A stretch of 64,000 nt of DNA from assembly GCA_963785725.1 (NCBI GenBank), contig CAWAWS010000027.1, positions 32,001 to 96,000 on the forward strand, given 5' to 3'. Below, piece after piece: positions 4,199-21,340 of this stretch. A program made the translations under genes and the position numbers. Numbering within the stretch: the stretch's first letter is position 1; the number at the start of each line of letters is the position of its first letter. Source of the stretch: an uncultured delta proteobacterium (lineage in GTDB: Bacteria; Myxococcota_A; Polyangia; Palsa-1104). Below the pieces are notes generated by a model. The model saw nothing but the letters and a program-made list of their open reading frames with translations. It was not told the DNA's origin and made no database searches.

Positions 4199-5809
4199 AT
4201 GTTTCCATTGCGTACAAACGACGTAACTGGAGGGAATCGCCCTATCGCGAAGCCCGCGAACGCGCTTAAATCTTCATTCGTGCCTGTCGCGCGACCTTCG
4301 CAGAGTCAGTCGCAGTCGTCGGCTAATCCCGGCCCGTCGTCGCTGCTGTCGGCCTATCGCCCACTGTCGAGCAGCTGGGACGAGCTGGTCGCGCCCGACG
4401 GCCGACCGCGCTCGCACGCCCAGCAGACCTTCGACATGCTGGGCGCGCTCGGCGCCGCCGATTTCGCACGCTATCAATCGCTGGCCGAGCTCTCGTTATA
4501 TAACCAGGGCATTACATTCTCGGTCTATTCCGACCAGCGCGGCACCGAGAAGATATTTCCCATTTGCCTCGTTCCGCGCGTCATCGACGCCGTCGAATGG
4601 GCCGCCGTCGAAAAAGGGTTGGTGCAGCGGGTTCAGGCGCTGAACCTCTTTCTCGACGATCTGTACGGCGAGCAGCGCATCCTCAAGGACGGCTGCGTGC
4701 CCGCCGATTTGGTGCTGGGCGCGAAGTTCTACTTGCCGCAGCTGCACGGCATGAAGCCACCGGGCGGCGTGCGCATTCCCATCGCCGGCATCGACCTCAT
4801 CCGCGGCCCCGACGGCATCTTGCGCGTGCTCGAGGACAACGTGCGCACGCCGTCGGGTGTGTCGTATGTCGTCGAGAATCGGCTGGTGACGAAGCGAATC
4901 TTCCAGCACTCGACGGAGATCTCGGGCGAGATGTCGAGCATCCGGCCGGTCGAGCAATATCCGATCGAGCTCGCGCGCACGCTGCGTTCGATCGCGCCGA
5001 CCGAGAGCGACGACATTCGCGCGGTCGTGCTGACGCCGGGATCGTTCAACTCGGCCTACTTCGAGCACACGTTCTTGGCGCGCCACATGGGCATCGAGCT
5101 GGTCGAGGCGAGCGACCTGTTCGTCGAGAAAGACGCGGTGTTCGTGCGCACGACGCAAGGGCCGAAGCGCGTCGACGTCATCTATCGCCGCATCGACGAC
5201 GCTTACCTCGACCCCGAGTTCTTCCGGCCCGACAGCATGCTGGGCGTGCCCGGCCTCATGCGCGCCTACGCCGCCGGCAACGTCGCGCTCGCCAACGCGC
5301 CCGGCAACGGCTGCGCCGACGACAAGGCCGTGTATGCGTTCGTGCCCGATATGATTCGCTATTACCTCGGCGAAGAGGCGCTGCTGGCACAAGTCGACAC
5401 CTACGCCTGTGCGCGTCCCGACGATCTGGCGTATGTCGTCGATCATCTGTCGCGGCTCGTGGTCAAGTCGGTCGACGAAGCGGGCGGCTACGGCATGCTC
5501 ATGGGCCCGCAAGCGAGCGCCGACGAGATCGCGACCTTCCGCAAGCGCATCATCGCCGAGCCGCGCAAATACATCGCGCAGGAGCGCATCGAGCTGTCGA
5601 CGTGTCCGACGTGGGATCCGGCGCGGCAGGCGTTGGCGCCGCGGCGCGTGGATTTGCGGCCGTTCGTGCTCACGCGTCCCGACGGCGCGTGGGTCTTGCC
5701 CGGCGGCTTGACGCGCGTCGCGCTCGTCGAAGGCTCGTACGTCGTCAACTCGAGCCAAGGCGGCGGCAGCAAAGACACGTGGGTCCAGCGCGCCGACGGT
5801 GGCGCATGA
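4199..5809 (+). CDS. Circularly permuted type 2 ATP-grasp protein (DUF404-type); true start may be downstream
   Basis: QGITFSVY, VLEDNVRTPSGVSY, LTPGSFNSAYFEH, VDVIYRRIDD and VVNSSQGGGSKDTWV motifs. Confidence 0.92.
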   Translation: MFPLRTNDVTGGNRPIAKPANALKSSFVPVARPSQSQSQSSANPGPSSLLSAYRPLSSSWDELVAPDGRPRSHAQQTFDMLGALGAADFARYQSLAELSLYNQGITFSVYSDQRGTEKIFPICLVPRVIDAVEWAAVEKGLVQRVQALNLFLDDLYGEQRILKDGCVPADLVLGAKFYLPQLHGMKPPGGVRIPIAGIDLIRGPDGILRVLEDNVRTPSGVSYVVENRLVTKRIFQHSTEISGEMSSIRPVEQYPIELARTLRSIAPTESDDIRAVVLTPGSFNSAYFEHTFLARHMGIELVEASDLFVEKDAVFVRTTQGPKRVDVIYRRIDDAYLDPEFFRPDSMLGVPGLMRAYAAGNVALANAPGNGCADDKAVYAFVPDMIRYYLGEEALLAQVDTYACARPDDLAYVVDHLSRLVVKSVDEAGGYGMLMGPQASADEIATFRKRIIAEPRKYIAQERIELSTCPTWDPARQALAPRRVDLRPFVLTRPDGAWVLPGGLTRVALVEGSYVVNSSQGGGSKDTWVQRADGGA

Positions 5810-6786
5810 TCTCGCGGGTCGCCGATCACTGCTTCTGGTTCGGCCGTTACGTCGAGCGCGCCGAGTCGAGCGCGCGGCTTTTGCAGGCAACGCGCGCGCT
5901 CGTGTTCGACACCGAGCTGCCGGTGACGCAATGCTGGACGCCGCTCGTCATCGTCTCCGGTGAGTACGACCACTTCTGCGAGCGCTATGACGCCGAGGCC
6001 GCCGGCGACGGCGAGCGCGTCCAGGAGCACCTGACCTGGAGCGACTCGGGCGTGAGCCTCTTGACGTCGGTGCGGGCGGCGCGTGAGAGCGCGCGCGTCA
6101 TCCGCGACGTGCTGTCACTCGAGACGTGGGAAGCGATCAACGAGCTGTACCTGTTTCTCGGCCGCGACTCGACGGAGCAGCTCTATCGCGAGCATCGCGA
6201 GGAGCTCTATCGCACGGTGCGGCGCTCGACGCAGCTGGTGCTCGGCCTCGTGCGCTCGACGATGCTGCACGACGAGCCGATGAGCTTTCTGTGGCTGGGC
6301 GCGATGATCGAGCGCGCCGGACAAGTGGCGCGCATGCTCGACATGCATCACCACACGATGGCGCGCGAGCATGCGCATTACATCGTGCAAGTGGCCCTCT
6401 GGCTTTCACTCTTGCGCGCGTCGTCGGGCTACGAAGCGTACATGAAGAAGCACCAAGGGCGCGTCACGGTGCAGTCGCTGGCGTCGTTCCTGCTGTTCGA
6501 GCCGAGCTTTCCGCGTTCGCTCGGCTACTGCTTGAAGTCGTCGCGCTCGCTGCTCGGCAACATCTGGCCCGACGCGCCCGCCGACGGCCAGCCGCGCGAG
6601 TCGTTGGCGCGGCTCGACGCGCTGCTCAACTGGCTCGACGAGCAGAAGACGCGCGGCATCGAAGGCACCGACTTCCACGAGCTGCTCACGCGCGTCGTCG
6701 ACGAAACCGCGGAGATCTGCGGCCAAGTCTCGACCGAGATCCAAGGCCCGGTGCATCCCAAGCCCGCCGCCGCCGCTACCGGCTGA
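5806..6786 (+). CDS. Alpha-E domain protein (DUF403)
   Basis: Begins MISRVADHCFWFGRYVERAESSARLL; ATGA overlap with the ATP-grasp stop; second ER repeat LGAMIERA; FPRSL motif. It is the C-terminal part of track ORF 4564..6786. Confidence 0.92.
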   Translation: MISRVADHCFWFGRYVERAESSARLLQATRALVFDTELPVTQCWTPLVIVSGEYDHFCERYDAEAAGDGERVQEHLTWSDSGVSLLTSVRAARESARVIRDVLSLETWEAINELYLFLGRDSTEQLYREHREELYRTVRRSTQLVLGLVRSTMLHDEPMSFLWLGAMIERAGQVARMLDMHHHTMAREHAHYIVQVALWLSLLRASSGYEAYMKKHQGRVTVQSLASFLLFEPSFPRSLGYCLKSSRSLLGNIWPDAPADGQPRESLARLDALLNWLDEQKTRGIEGTDFHELLTRVVDETAEICGQVSTEIQGPVHPKPAAAATG

Positions 6787-6840: not shown

Positions 6841-6961
6841 AGCCCAAGCGGAGACATGCTGGGCGCCGGCGAGTTGTCTCCCGCAGGCTGTAAGCCGAGG
6901 ACTGTCTGAGCCGGCGCCCAGCATGTCGGAGCGCCGCCGGCGCCCAGCATGTCGGAGCGCC
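6841..6961. repeat. Structured intergenic element family 1, copy A (95 nt), plus a 26-nt tandem duplication of its end
   Basis: Perfect 18-bp inverted repeat 6853-6870 / 6910-6927. 6910-6935 is repeated at 6936-6961. 6841-6935 aligns without gaps to the reverse complement of 8952-9046 (75/95 identical). Confidence 0.9.
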
Positions 6962-6970
6962 GCCGGAGCG

Positions 6971-8182
6971 TCAGTTATTGACGCCGGCGAAGATGTTGGC
7001 GAACTGGAACGTGCTCGTGTCGACGTTGGAGCAAGCGTCGCCGTCGGCGTAACCGCCCGCGCCGCACTTTTCGTCGCGCTGGATGGCCCAGAACGAGACG
7101 AGGCCGAGCTTGACGTCCTTGGCGTGCGCGATGAACGTCTGGGCGTTGGCGAGCGAGAAGACCGAGCTGTCGTCGTTCTTGCCGATCATGGCCGTGCCGC
7201 CGACCATGCGATAGGCGTCGGCGAGCGACAAGCCGGAGATGGCCGACGTCAGCTGCTTCGCGGTCGAGTCCACCGAGTCGACGGGCGTCTTGCCGAGGTC
7301 GGTGCCGTCGCCGTAGTCCATCGTCATGACGTTGACGTACTGAATCGTGACGCCGGCCTTGAGCGCGGAGGTGACGACGGCCAAGCCCAAGTCGTCGAGC
7401 CCGTCGTCATTGACCGGCAGCGTGAACGCGACCTTGATGCCCTTGGACGTCTGCACCGACTTCAACGCGGTGGCGCGCATGGCGTTGATGGTGGCGTTGC
7501 TCGTCGACGAGCCCTGCTCGATGTCGAAGTCGAGGTCGGTGATGCCGGTGGCGTCGACGAAGTCGCTGATGGCCGACGCCAGCGCCGTCGCGCTCGTGCA
7601 CGCGCTCTCCAAGTACGTGCCGTCGGCGCCGCCGAAGCTCGCTTTGACGTGGCCGCCGCCGGCGATGTAGGCCTTGACGTCGGCGAGGTTGTCTTGAATG
7701 TCCGTCGACGTCGTGCAGCCGCCGCCCGAGAGCACGAAGGCGATCGTCACTTCCTTCGGCCCCGACATCTGCTGCATCTGCACGAGCGAGTTGAACGAGT
7801 ACGCGTTGCCGCCCCAGCTCCACGTGTAGAAATAGGGGGCAAACTCGGTGACTTCGGGGTTCGCCGTCGTGCCGCCGCCGCCCGCGGTGCCACCGCCGCC
7901 GGCGCTGCCGCCGCCACCGCCGGCGCTGCCGCCGCCACCGGCCGTCTCGCCGCCGCCGCCGGCCGCGCCGATGCCGCCGCCGGCGCTGCCGCTACCGCCG
8001 GCGCTCGTGCTGCCGCCGGCGTTGCCGCTGCCGCCACCCGCGCTGCTGCCGCCACCGTTGCCCGACGGATCGCCGATGCCGGACGAACCGCCGCAACCGA
8101 CGAGCGCGAGGCAGAGCGCGAACGAAGAAGCCAGACCGACCGAGAGGCGCGTGGATGCGAACATAATGGCGCACATTCGCAA
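6971..8182 (-). CDS. GH18 chitinase-like lipoprotein with Gly-rich linker
   Basis: Lipobox LALVGC; about 70-aa Gly/Ser/Ala linker; FAPYF, SFGGA, catalytic DLDFDIE, VNVMTMDYG and SFWAIQRD motifs. Confidence 0.88.
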   Translation of the reverse strand: MRMCAIMFASTRLSVGLASSFALCLALVGCGGSSGIGDPSGNGGGSSAGGGSGNAGGSTSAGGSGSAGGGIGAAGGGGETAGGGGSAGGGGGSAGGGGTAGGGGTTANPEVTEFAPYFYTWSWGGNAYSFNSLVQMQQMSGPKEVTIAFVLSGGGCTTSTDIQDNLADVKAYIAGGGHVKASFGGADGTYLESACTSATALASAISDFVDATGITDLDFDIEQGSSTSNATINAMRATALKSVQTSKGIKVAFTLPVNDDGLDDLGLAVVTSALKAGVTIQYVNVMTMDYGDGTDLGKTPVDSVDSTAKQLTSAISGLSLADAYRMVGGTAMIGKNDDSSVFSLANAQTFIAHAKDVKLGLVSFWAIQRDEKCGAGGYADGDACSNVDTSTFQFANIFAGVNN

Positions 8183-8318
8183 GTGTCACGCCAAGGAGAC
8201 ACGCATGCATGTAGCTGATTTTACGACTGAACCGATAAGCGCTCGATGAGACTGCGGACCACGGATGTAAACTTCGAGGTGACGAGCATGCCGGCTGTGG
8301 AATGTTACAATTACACTG

Positions 8319-8948
8319 ATGGCTGTTCCACCGGCGCCGCAGCGGCACCCGTTCGCTCCTGGTAGGAGCCCGTTTCACGTCAAGGGCGTCGTTTATCGCA
8401 ACTTCGTCGAGTACATCGATGGCGCGGTCGACGGCGGGATTGCCCGGCTGGTGACGCTGCTCGACGAGCCGGAGCTGCAGACGTTCGCGCAGCAGCCCTT
8501 CTTGGCGAGCAGCTTCTACGACGCGCTGCCGACGGTGCCGCTGTGCGAGACGGCGGCCAAGGCGCTCAATCGTCCGTTCGGTCAGCTGGTGCGCGAGTTT
8601 TCGGCGTACGCGTCCGAGCGCGACACGAAGGGCATCTATCGGCTGCTCTTGAAGTTGGTGTCGCCCGAGATGGTCATGGAGCGGACGCCGGCGGCGGCGA
8701 AGCAGTATTTCGACTTCGTCGTGGTGACGGCAGAAAAAAGCGGGCCCAAGAGCTTTCGCACGATGGTGCGCGGGGTGCCGCGGTTCGTGGCGCCGTTCTA
8801 TATGACGGTGACCGAGGCGTTCTTGAGTCGGGCGTTGACGCTGGCGGGCGCGAAGGAGCCGCGGCACGCGTGGCAGGCGCCGCTGCCGGACGGCGAGCGC
8901 GACGGCGTGCCGCTGGTGCGGCTGCGGCGTGAGGTGAGCTGGCGATAG
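8319..8948 (+). CDS. Hypothetical protein resembling the myxobacterial DUF2378/TIGR02265 family
   Basis: Pattern FHVKG...FLASSFYD...GIYRLLLKLVSPE...QYFDF; normal codon bias. Confidence 0.55.
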   Translation: MAVPPAPQRHPFAPGRSPFHVKGVVYRNFVEYIDGAVDGGIARLVTLLDEPELQTFAQQPFLASSFYDALPTVPLCETAAKALNRPFGQLVREFSAYASERDTKGIYRLLLKLVSPEMVMERTPAAAKQYFDFVVVTAEKSGPKSFRTMVRGVPRFVAPFYMTVTEAFLSRALTLAGAKEPRHAWQAPLPDGERDGVPLVRLRREVSWR

Positions 8949-8951
8949 TCG

Positions 8952-9046
8952 GGCGCTCCGACAAAACGGGCGCGCGCTCGGACAGTGCTCGCCCTACGGG
9001 CTGCGCAAGACAACTCGCGCGCGCCCATTTTGTCTCCGCTCGGGCT
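8952..9046. repeat. Structured intergenic element family 1, copy B
   Basis: 17/18-bp inverted repeat 8960-8977 / 9017-9034; homologous to 6841-6935 in the opposite orientation. Confidence 0.9.
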
Positions 9047-9117
9047 GTGGAAGGCGGAGGCGGAAGCAGACGACGGCGTTCGGTTTGCGGCGCAGCCGTC
9101 GTTCGGCTGCGATTGAG

Positions 9118-9380
9118 GGCGGATGCGGAGGCGAGCCACGGCGGGATGGCGCGCGGCTTCGGCTGAAGGGGCGGATGCGGAGGCGAGGCGTGGCGTGCGT
9201 GCTGTCTGGTGCAACCGTCGGTCGGCTTCGGCTGCGGAGCTGGCGGCGGAAGCGAGCGACGGTGCCGCGCAGTCGCAGTGAGCGCGTGGTCGCGATCGGT
9301 CGTGATCGCGAGGCTGCAGCGCGTGGGCGGCGCGGCGGCGGTCGTAGCTGTGCGGTCGTAGCTGTGCGGTCGTAGCCGTG
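9118..9380. repeat. Strand-skewed low-complexity tract with short direct and tandem repeats
   Basis: GGCGGATGCGGAGGCGAG occurs at about 9118 and 9170; GGTCGTAGCTGTGC occurs about 3 times in tandem at about 9340-9380. Confidence 0.75.
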
Positions 9381-9429
9381 CTGTGGGTGGTCGCGGTGGA
9401 TTTCGGGGGCGGATGGGTTTGGGCGGGGT

Positions 9430-9559
9430 GGCGACGGCGCCCGGGCGCGCGGTGCGCGCGGGCGCTGTCGCTCCGTCGGAGTCGGCCATCGTGTAGTCAG
9501 GCACGCCGATCGATGGCTTATCGCGGGCGCACGCGCTCCGCACCCACGCGCGCCCCCAA
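9430..9559 (-). repeat. Dispersed intergenic element family 2, copy 1 (about 130 nt)
   Basis: The reverse complement matches 20351-20479 (4 mismatches in the first 77 nt, about 90% overall, one indel). Confidence 0.9.
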
Positions 9560-9590
9560 TGGCGGCAGCTCAGCGTGACTTCGCGGGCGG

Positions 9591-20281: not shown

Positions 20282-20350
20282 CGCCGGCGTAGCCCGCCGG
20301 TGACGCGCGGAGCTCGGCGCGTGCGGGTGTGCTTGTTTTTGCCGTCGCTG

Positions 20351-20479
20351 TTGGGGGCGCGCGTGGGTGCCGAGCGCGTGCGCCCGCGATAAACCATTGA
20401 TCGGCGTGCCCGACTACACGATGGCCGGCGCGACGAAGCGACGACGCCCGCGCGCACCGCGCGCCCGGGCGCCGTCGCC
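20351..20479 (+). repeat. Dispersed intergenic element family 2, copy 2
   Basis: Homologous to the reverse complement of 9430-9559. Confidence 0.9.
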
Positions 20480-20522
20480 GACTCGCCCAAGCCCCAGCGA
20501 CCGCACGCCCCCACTTCGCCGG

Positions 20523-20775
20523 CCGCAATCCGCGCCCCACGCCGCGCAATCCGCGCCCCCACGCCGCGCAATCCGCGCCCCCACGCCGCACAATCCGCGC
20601 CCACACTCCGCGCAATCCGCGCCCGCACTCCGCGCAATCCGCGCCCGCACTCCACGCTCGCCGCGCCCCACTCCGCGCAATCCGCGCCCACACTCCGCGC
20701 AATCCGCGCCCACACTCCGCGCAATCCGCGCCCACACTCCGCGCAATCCGCGCCCGCACTCCACGCTCGCCGCGC
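20523..20775 (+). repeat. About 22-nt tandem repeat array (minisatellite)
   Basis: Unit CCGCGCAATCCGCGCCC(A/C/G)CAC(T/G), about 10 copies plus 2 variant units (CCACGCTCGCCGCGCC); no unique spacers. Confidence 0.92.
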
Positions 20776-20788
20776 CGCCCGCCGCGCC

Positions 20789-21340
20789 TTACGCGCCGCC
20801 CGCCGCCCCGACCGCCGCCACCAAAGCCGCGACGCTGCGCCGCAGCGTCGCTCGATCCTCGCCGCCCATCGCCCCCTCCGCCGTCAGCCGCTGCGTCAGA
20901 AACGGCGCGAACAGCGAAGCCTCGAGCACGCGCGCCTCGAGGGTCCGCAAAATCTCCGCCAGCTGCGCCTGCGCAAACTGTCCGCCCGCCGACGCATTCA
21001 ACGCCAGCAGCGGCTTGCCCGCCAGCTCGCCGCTCGACACGATCCAATCGAGCGCATTCTTGAACGCGCCCGGCAGCCCGTGCGCATACTCCGGCACCGA
21101 CACGATGAACCCATCGGCCGACCGCAACAGCGCACGCCACTCGGCGACGGCCGGCGGCGGCACGTCACCCTCCTGGTCGAGATCGGGATTGAAGCTGGGC
21201 AGCCCGCCAACGCCTTCGTACAAGAGCGTCTCGATTTCAGCCGGCACGAGCGCAAACGCCGCCCGCACCAGCCCCGCGTTCGACGACTGCGCCCGCAAGC
21301 TGCCCGACAGCCCGACGATTCGCTTCCGCTCGGCGCTCAT
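20789..21340 (-). CDS. NADPH-dependent FMN reductase (flavodoxin-like)
   Basis: GSLRAQSSN and PEYAHGLPGAFKNALDW motifs. Confidence 0.93.
   Translation of the reverse strand: MSAERKRIVGLSGSLRAQSSNAGLVRAAFALVPAEIETLLYEGVGGLPSFNPDLDQEGDVPPPAVAEWRALLRSADGFIVSVPEYAHGLPGAFKNALDWIVSSGELAGKPLLALNASAGGQFAQAQLAEILRTLEARVLEASLFAPFLTQRLTAEGAMGGEDRATLRRSVAALVAAVGAAGGA

Follow-up and report, generated by a model that had tools for sequence, protein, structure and literature searches.

Altogether, our analysis supports a model whereby a 95-nt intergenic element, two copies of which lie in the 64,000-nt stretch of DNA examined here (the window), belongs to a family of 23 copies that folds into a rod on one fixed strand and is a non-autonomous mobile element, with a factor encoded elsewhere recognising it in the form of folded single-stranded DNA; we give this reading a probability of roughly 0.55. 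It is based on the copy number, the covariation of the stems, an invariant core, the occurrence of this core in both orders across many phyla, the patchy bursts in which copies appear and the GNA loops that close the hairpins.

The two window copies, at 6841-6935 on the + strand (copy 1) and at 8952-9046 on the - strand (copy 2), align without gaps, and a recount gives exactly the 20 mismatches reported in the initial annotation, at element positions 6, 17-19, 27-28, 40-41, 47, 49, 53, 55, 60, 67, 72-73 and 80-83. Paired positions hold 19 of these 20 differences, position 6 alone lying outside any pair. The seven compensatory pairs that had been described stand (17-19 with 83-81, 27-28 with 73-72, 47 with 55, and 49 with 53), as does the change at 80 that gives a T20.G80 wobble, and the pair suggested as a possible eighth is 41/60, which is C-G in 10 of 17 copies and G-C in 7 of 17. 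Two further mismatches are also pair-related, namely 67 (G33.T or G33-C) and 40, which faces 61 (T-A or C.A). The strand on which the element is written is the folding strand: copy 1 scores 111 bits on + and 33 on -, copy 2 scores 116 bits on - and 30 on +, and the z-scores of the written strands of copies 1 and 2 against shuffles are -3.9 and -3.2 when folded as RNA and -4.6 and -3.8 when folded as DNA.

Each copy lies just past a stop codon, as had been noticed, with a gene converging on its 3' end. The gene facing copy 1 (6971-8182, -), with its stop at 6971, 35 nt away, has a weak GH18 match (PF00704, E 1.5e-6, below the cut-off); the gene facing copy 2 (8319-8948, +), with its stop at 8948, 3 nt away, encodes a 209-aa protein that has no Pfam or NCBIfam family and that has two to five paralogues per genome in five genomes of the genus. 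An Alpha-E gene (5809-6786, +) ends 54 nt before copy 1. The reported absence of a U-tract also holds, and no terminator-like site is found at either copy. Copy 1 is followed by a tandem duplicate of its final 26 nt (6936-6961, +) with a 5-nt microhomology; contigs from three soil runs (X1, X2 and X3) keep the element and are missing the duplicate, with 6926-6964 joined directly. Beside copy 2, positions 9070-9260 form a single-copy GC-rich stretch with short hairpins, including a weak, sub-threshold Rfam narK score at 9070-9137. The window also holds a second, unrelated repeat of ~130-150 nt in mutually inverted copies at 9415-9569 and 20341-20494 (35 BLAST matches on many contigs), the latter adjoining a tandem array with a 22-nt unit (20486-20820).

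At the outer end of the folding strand, two G-C pairs close a GGA/GGA loop (GCGGAG with CGGAGC in 13 of 17 copies; 5' side at 6848-6853 and partner at 6927-6932 in copy 1, +). The earlier description of invariant unpaired segments thus stands for the core loops, which are fixed, but not for the flanks, which are closed around this loop by the invariant pairs 8-92 and 9-91. The 18-bp stem follows, its 5' arm at 6853-6870 and its 3' arm at 6910-6927 (+) covarying over 17 copies. At most one of its pairs departs from Watson-Crick geometry in 21 of the 22 copies scored, and all seven such pairs are G.T on the written strand, none A.C; five of the seven share one position and are probably inherited. 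Inside the stem, a GCGAG/YGAGC block and then G33.T/C67 are present in 17 of 17 copies. In GA motifs, blocks of this kind pair through sheared G.A, and the block here could likewise form tandem sheared G.A pairs. Next come an internal loop rich in pyrimidines, each side of which carries TGTCT, and the pairs 41-60, 42-59 and 44-57, and the rod ends in a 4-bp hairpin with a GTA cap (6886-6896, +; CGTAG in 12, TGTAA in 4 and CGTGG in 1 of 17 copies).

The core of the rod consists of two strands. In copy 1 (+), strand S1 lies at 6869-6886 in a long form, GCGAGTT plus a 5-base insert plus CCGCAG, and strand S2 lies at 6896-6911 (CGAGGACTGTCTGAGC); in copy 2 (-), they lie at 9001-9018 (S1, the G41 variant) and 8976-8991 (S2, the C60, C67 variant). 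The 5-base S1 insert sets the second TGTCT opposite the first, and the core of this subtype varies at pair 41-60, so that the C-G pair of the core is revealed by covariation through the G41-C60 variant of the source genome. The long-S1 subtype with its insertion and in-core covariation is new, and it is useful because this core variation fixes the pairing register and offers natural variants for probing.

The element is not confined to the two copies first described. An iterated nhmmer search finds 23 copies and one fragment on 13 contigs of the 8.9-Mb assembly of the source genome (G000), 19 of them 94-96 nt long. Of the other four, three reach 119 nt and have an extended apical arm, and one has an internal deletion. 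One more long variant, with a short S1 (L054:1500-1570; G000:C7:264734-264856), comes from a pattern search; it abuts a tRNA gene within a cluster of tRNA and SRP RNA genes. The 17 gapless copies, the six gapped ones being left out, gave a covariance model that recovers the copies of the family and yields no third copy in the window. Of the 459 pair cells in the alignment of these 17 copies, 98% are paired, and in 15 of the 27 pairs both partners vary, while none of 500 shuffles matches the observed pairing or covariation and partners slid out of register pair in 25-53% of cells; C40.A61, in nine copies, accounts for all the unpaired cells. The element has well-defined ends near positions 1 and 95. 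No target duplication was found among the 17 copies, the longest shared flank word averaging 4.4 nt for own flanks against 4.0 nt for swapped ones, a comparison to which old, decayed duplications would contribute little. Several copies carry nested tandem repeats of their own 3' end. A gene converges on the 3' end of 14 of the 19 standard copies, in many cases at 10 nt or less (a count that includes a tandem pair and one copy within an ORF), and its mRNA would therefore carry the complement of the structured strand. Three copies in the source genome supply the stop codon of a neighbouring gene. The copy within an ORF (L019:1499-1593; G000:C3:40299-40393) occupies a central, in-frame position in a 608-aa CoA-transferase ORF and possibly joins two subunit genes.

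Beyond the source genome, S2 by itself, scanned against a single genome per species, gives at least 129 loci. S1 lies within 130 nt on the same strand in 117 of the 136 distinct S2 matches listed, against 1 of 136 in a reversed-window control, and these 117 show both orders of the core, S1 preceding S2 as in the window in 51 (order A) and following it in 66 (order B). By record titles, the first 80 two-strand loci listed come from about 14 phyla: Gemmatimonadota, Pseudomonadota, Spirochaetota, Actinomycetota, Cyanobacteriota, Patescibacteria, Bacillota, Omnitrophota, Myxococcota, Planctomycetota, Latescibacterota, Campylobacterota, Nitrospirota and Bacteroidota. The core is nearly unchanged across them, and the stems on both sides are free to vary. 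The long-S1 subtype is narrow, being present in the source genus and five metagenome loci. Distribution is patchy at close range as well: genus mates hold 0, 3, 26 and 77 matches to the two-part pattern, mostly with a shorter S1, the mate without copies being the 99%-complete G003, and in a sample of the phylum S2 matches occur in 47 of 301 genomes, mostly singly and near control level, with six or more in only 3 of 301. G004, G061 and G062, unlike the source genome, hold inverted doublets, whose two copies are separated by about 200 nt. Many order-B loci, as well as L057 and L059, carry a triplex-like pyrimidine-pyrimidine-purine tract and a small hairpin ~60-100 nt downstream of the core; the available part of PMC4666352 treats triplex repeats resembling this tail and holds nothing on the core. 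The core is undescribed in the full-text literature searched, motif letters included, with a listing in the supplement of PMC5737381, in bioRxiv supplements or in the database of 10.64898/2026.10.21.760802 being possible, and its letters are absent from the files searched among the supplements of three Geobacteraceae/Pelobacter papers (12 of 15 and 12 of 19 files where only some were covered). The view that the element is not a named family is upheld, as neither the window nor the element in any of 17 related loci has an Rfam score that reaches the gathering threshold or a useful E-value. The repeat probably represents an undescribed cross-phylum superfamily of non-autonomous elements that fold as single-stranded DNA.

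Several features of the loops and stems point to DNA. Among the matches listed, c-GNA-g closes the stem in 50 of 94 short closing segments, against a shuffled mean of 5.9 and 1 on the opposite strand, whereas GNRA occurs twice and UNCG not at all; all four bases occur at N (GAA 21, GTA 17, GCA 12 and GGA 2 occurrences). Kinship of the genomes inflates these counts, and among distinct segments the ratio is 27 of 70 for c-GNA-g versus 2 for GNRA. The GCGNAGC mini-hairpin is exceptionally stable in DNA, related RNA hairpins being much weaker, according to the text available from PMC13037366, and the excess of c-GNA-g over GNRA and UNCG therefore points to single-stranded DNA rather than RNA. Stem wobbles across phyla comprise 27 G.T against 11 A.C in the core-bearing loci among the matches listed. 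The opposite strand has five GNRA and six UNCG loops, and an RNA-level role of some kind may exist. As the accessible portion of PMC5737381 notes, motifs in single-stranded DNA and RNA are hard to separate by comparison alone. The initial annotation had offered either a structured ncRNA or 3'-UTR motif or a single-stranded DNA substrate of REP/REPIN type. A structure with fixed loops is confirmed and the single-stranded DNA option fits best; an ncRNA or 3'-UTR fits poorly because the wobbles, the tandem G.A and the GNA loops lie opposite the strand of the converging mRNA (14 of 19) and because the loops are not GNRA or UNCG.

In the family of G061, 3 of 30 hisA-hisF spacers hold the core, each with different stems. 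In one such spacer (L225), three 5' halves of differing element versions are stacked and one resembles the copy at the same locus in another genome (L226), an arrangement that suggests repeated insertion or conversion at one site. Copies also persist: at one orthologous locus, where the source genome has no copy, a long-S1 copy is retained by four relatives whose flanking sequences are 80-87% identical; the 5' arms of these copies agree at 7-17 of 22 letters, yet in three of the stems 27-29 of 30 positions still pair, against 17 in the fourth, scored in ungapped register. Neighbouring genes are unrelated and often of housekeeping type (Pfam scan of 110 of 125 called neighbour proteins), and when 1400 open frames close to cores were compared all against all by BLAST, the shared neighbours among the matches listed were only ubiquitous families and one IS4-like DDE transposase; the latter lies between two inverted order-B copies (L139:2501-4212) and has inverted ends of its own. 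A RAYT gene beside the copies had been proposed as a point to check, and none accompanies them: of 11 core-bearing genomes, 6 have no PF01797, the richest included (G000, 88% complete; G002, 53% complete; G017, G061, G062 and G063, two of the six being incomplete), and the core is absent from the 20 Y1 loci examined out of 49 matches. G012 and G001 hold 27 and 13 matches to Y1 transposases, none core-linked in the loci examined. Reverse transcriptase (PF00078) was found in three of five genomes, once below the cut-off, and not in G002 or G061, with no core at three RT loci. A search for a clean empty site gave none: the source-genome orthologue of L076 is a deletion remnant (C5) of an element intact in a close relative, the soil contigs retain copy 1, and other orthologues are too diverged. 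A circular form of the element was not seen.

Taken together, the dispersal of copies, the gain in hisA-hisF spacers, the in-ORF copy, stop-codon donation, inverted doublets, GNA loops, one-strand wobbles and unrelated neighbours support a mobile element acting as single-stranded DNA. In such a model, the written strand of transiently single-stranded DNA would form the 18-bp stem, the tandem sheared G.A, the core loop and the GNA mini-hairpin, and a trans-acting protein, other than a linked RAYT or RT, would bind the core and place copies of the rod in other intergenic regions, for the most part directly at the ends of genes. The stems would drift and be re-perfected through template switching, while the unpaired core would be held by the need for recognition. 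The two orders could arise if the rod passes through a closed form, either a dumbbell or head-to-tail, that can be opened at either end. Persistence at an orthologous locus in four relatives counts against this model because it also fits a host function, and the model is weakened by the lack of a mobiliser, a clean empty site, a target duplication or a circle, and by a core fixed across phyla, unlike REPs, which change along with their RAYT. We further speculate, giving the idea little weight, that the 30-nt two-strand core is a new kind of natural folded-DNA module that either processes itself in the manner of a deoxyribozyme or serves as the docking site of a host protein conserved universally, letting gene-less rods replicate through closed dumbbells in most phyla with no dedicated transposase.

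A possible, if unlikely, alternative is that the element is a structured RNA module, such as a small RNA, a K-turn-like protein site or an undescribed ribozyme, that moves via an RNA copy of itself, the two orders then being explained by RNA circles as in retrozymes. Small ribozymes typically show a circularly permuted two-strand core with free stems, as seen here, and RNA would accommodate the G.T/G.U wobbles and the tandem G.A pairs as well; the core itself covaries at 41-60, and the nested 3'-end duplicates behind several copies are what aborted reverse transcription could leave. Against it, GNA triloops outnumber GNRA and UNCG, Rfam gives no match, no RT was found in G002 or G061 or near any core, promoter- or terminator-like sites were not found at copies, and the duplicate in the window, with its 5-nt microhomology and its absence from related contigs, is as slippage predicts. 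We regard as rather improbable a domesticated chromosomal signal, that is, a folded single-stranded DNA site for a host machine that is universally conserved (primase/PriA loading, SSB exclusion, topoisomerase or nucleoid binding) that is amplified in some lineages. Such a signal would be in agreement with a core invariant across ~14 phyla and kept at orthologous loci with its stems replaced, with a nearly chromosome-only distribution (no BLAST matches in plasmid and phage collections, at low sensitivity for a 30-nt core, and 3, 0 and 0 core loci in three viral scans) and with the mini-hairpins at phage priming sites and N4 promoters described in available text of PMC13037366. Yet most genomes have no copy, G003 included, copies decay through deletion as in the C5 remnant, and on long contigs of G002 the strands of copies alternate with no replichore pattern evident by inspection.

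The element would very improbably be a 3'-end hairpin that stabilises the mRNA of the adjacent gene or aids its termination, or an inert MITE remnant whose covariation is purely template-switch mutation. The convergence of genes on 3' ends at close range and the folding of the 18-bp stem on the reverse strand as well agree with these possibilities, as do two copies (C36:2826 and C3:72594 of the source genome) whose outer loop has turned into a perfect palindrome and which look like products of template switching. However, gene orientation outside the source genome is mixed (order A 12 versus 10, order B 26 versus 15, by crude gene calls), the non-canonical features lie on the non-mRNA strand, and neither a U-tract nor a target duplication is seen. 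Template switching also qualifies the initial claim that compensatory changes imply selection. One switch can give block changes such as TGC/GCA to AAA/TTT, as described in parts of 10.1101/2021.04.15.439925 and PMC5941160, and because this explains part of the compensation in the long stem, the claim is too strong there. The same process would close and erase inner loops, yet these are fixed across phyla, and selection on the conserved unpaired core is therefore the firmer inference and a real signal. Thus, covariation in long perfect repeat stems need not mean a functional RNA.

Among known systems, the element lacks the U-tract behind the stem of an intrinsic terminator and the linked reverse transcriptase of a retron msDNA or other retroelement, the three PF00078 loci examined holding no core. 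It matches no Rfam model of self-cleaving ribozymes, and its partner strands misfit hairpin and twister-sister ribozymes, RNase P CR-I, group I P/Q elements and K-turns. Integron attC sites resemble it in that one strand folds, opposite to the preceding gene, and in their covarying stems, but their consensus has AAC/GTT triplets at the stem base where the element has GAC, GAA, GGC or GAT, and its copies are scattered rather than arranged in cassette arrays. Bacterial MITEs (Correia, RUP, ERIC and Chunjie) are likewise non-coding long stem-loops, of 70-300 nt, that insert in frame and donate stop codons; they differ, in the text available from PMC3184786 and PMC10969869, in that the element has no target duplication and is GC-rich, and its inverted arms are its most variable part and thus probably not conserved terminal inverted repeats. 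DNA mini-hairpin signals (the G4 origin, ssiA and the N4 promoter) share the c-GNA-g loops with sheared G.A (PMC13037366, in part), but lack the 30-nt internal-loop core of the element, which is also multi-copy and chromosomal. The closest likeness is to REP, BIME and REPIN repeats with their RAYT (TnpA-REP, a Y1 HUH enzyme), which are also intergenic, multi-copy, chromosomal, located past stop codons, built on a strand-specific bulged hairpin and, in some genomes, arranged as inverted doublets. These are smaller (21-65 nt versus 95-120 nt here) and, in the available text of PMC6006769 and PMC3733652, carry a GTAG/GTGG (or CGTC) tag on the 5' side of the foot of the hairpin, 0-2 nt away; the element has no such tag, its foot reads AGCCAGA/GCGGA, and GTAG occurs only in its apical loop, where it varies to GTAA. 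REP and REPIN repeats also flank a RAYT, whereas here no RAYT is flanked and the core is fixed across phyla in two orders. Its way of working may nevertheless be most like that of REP/REPIN, though the tag and the RAYT are lacking. Few natural single-stranded DNA structures beyond a hairpin are known, according to parts of PMC5737381. Small bacterial repeats normally change with host lineage and transposase; a core that is near letter-perfect in Patescibacteria, Actinomycetota and Myxococcota alike, occurs in two permutations and has no enzyme linked to it thus implies an undescribed recognition partner or chemistry.
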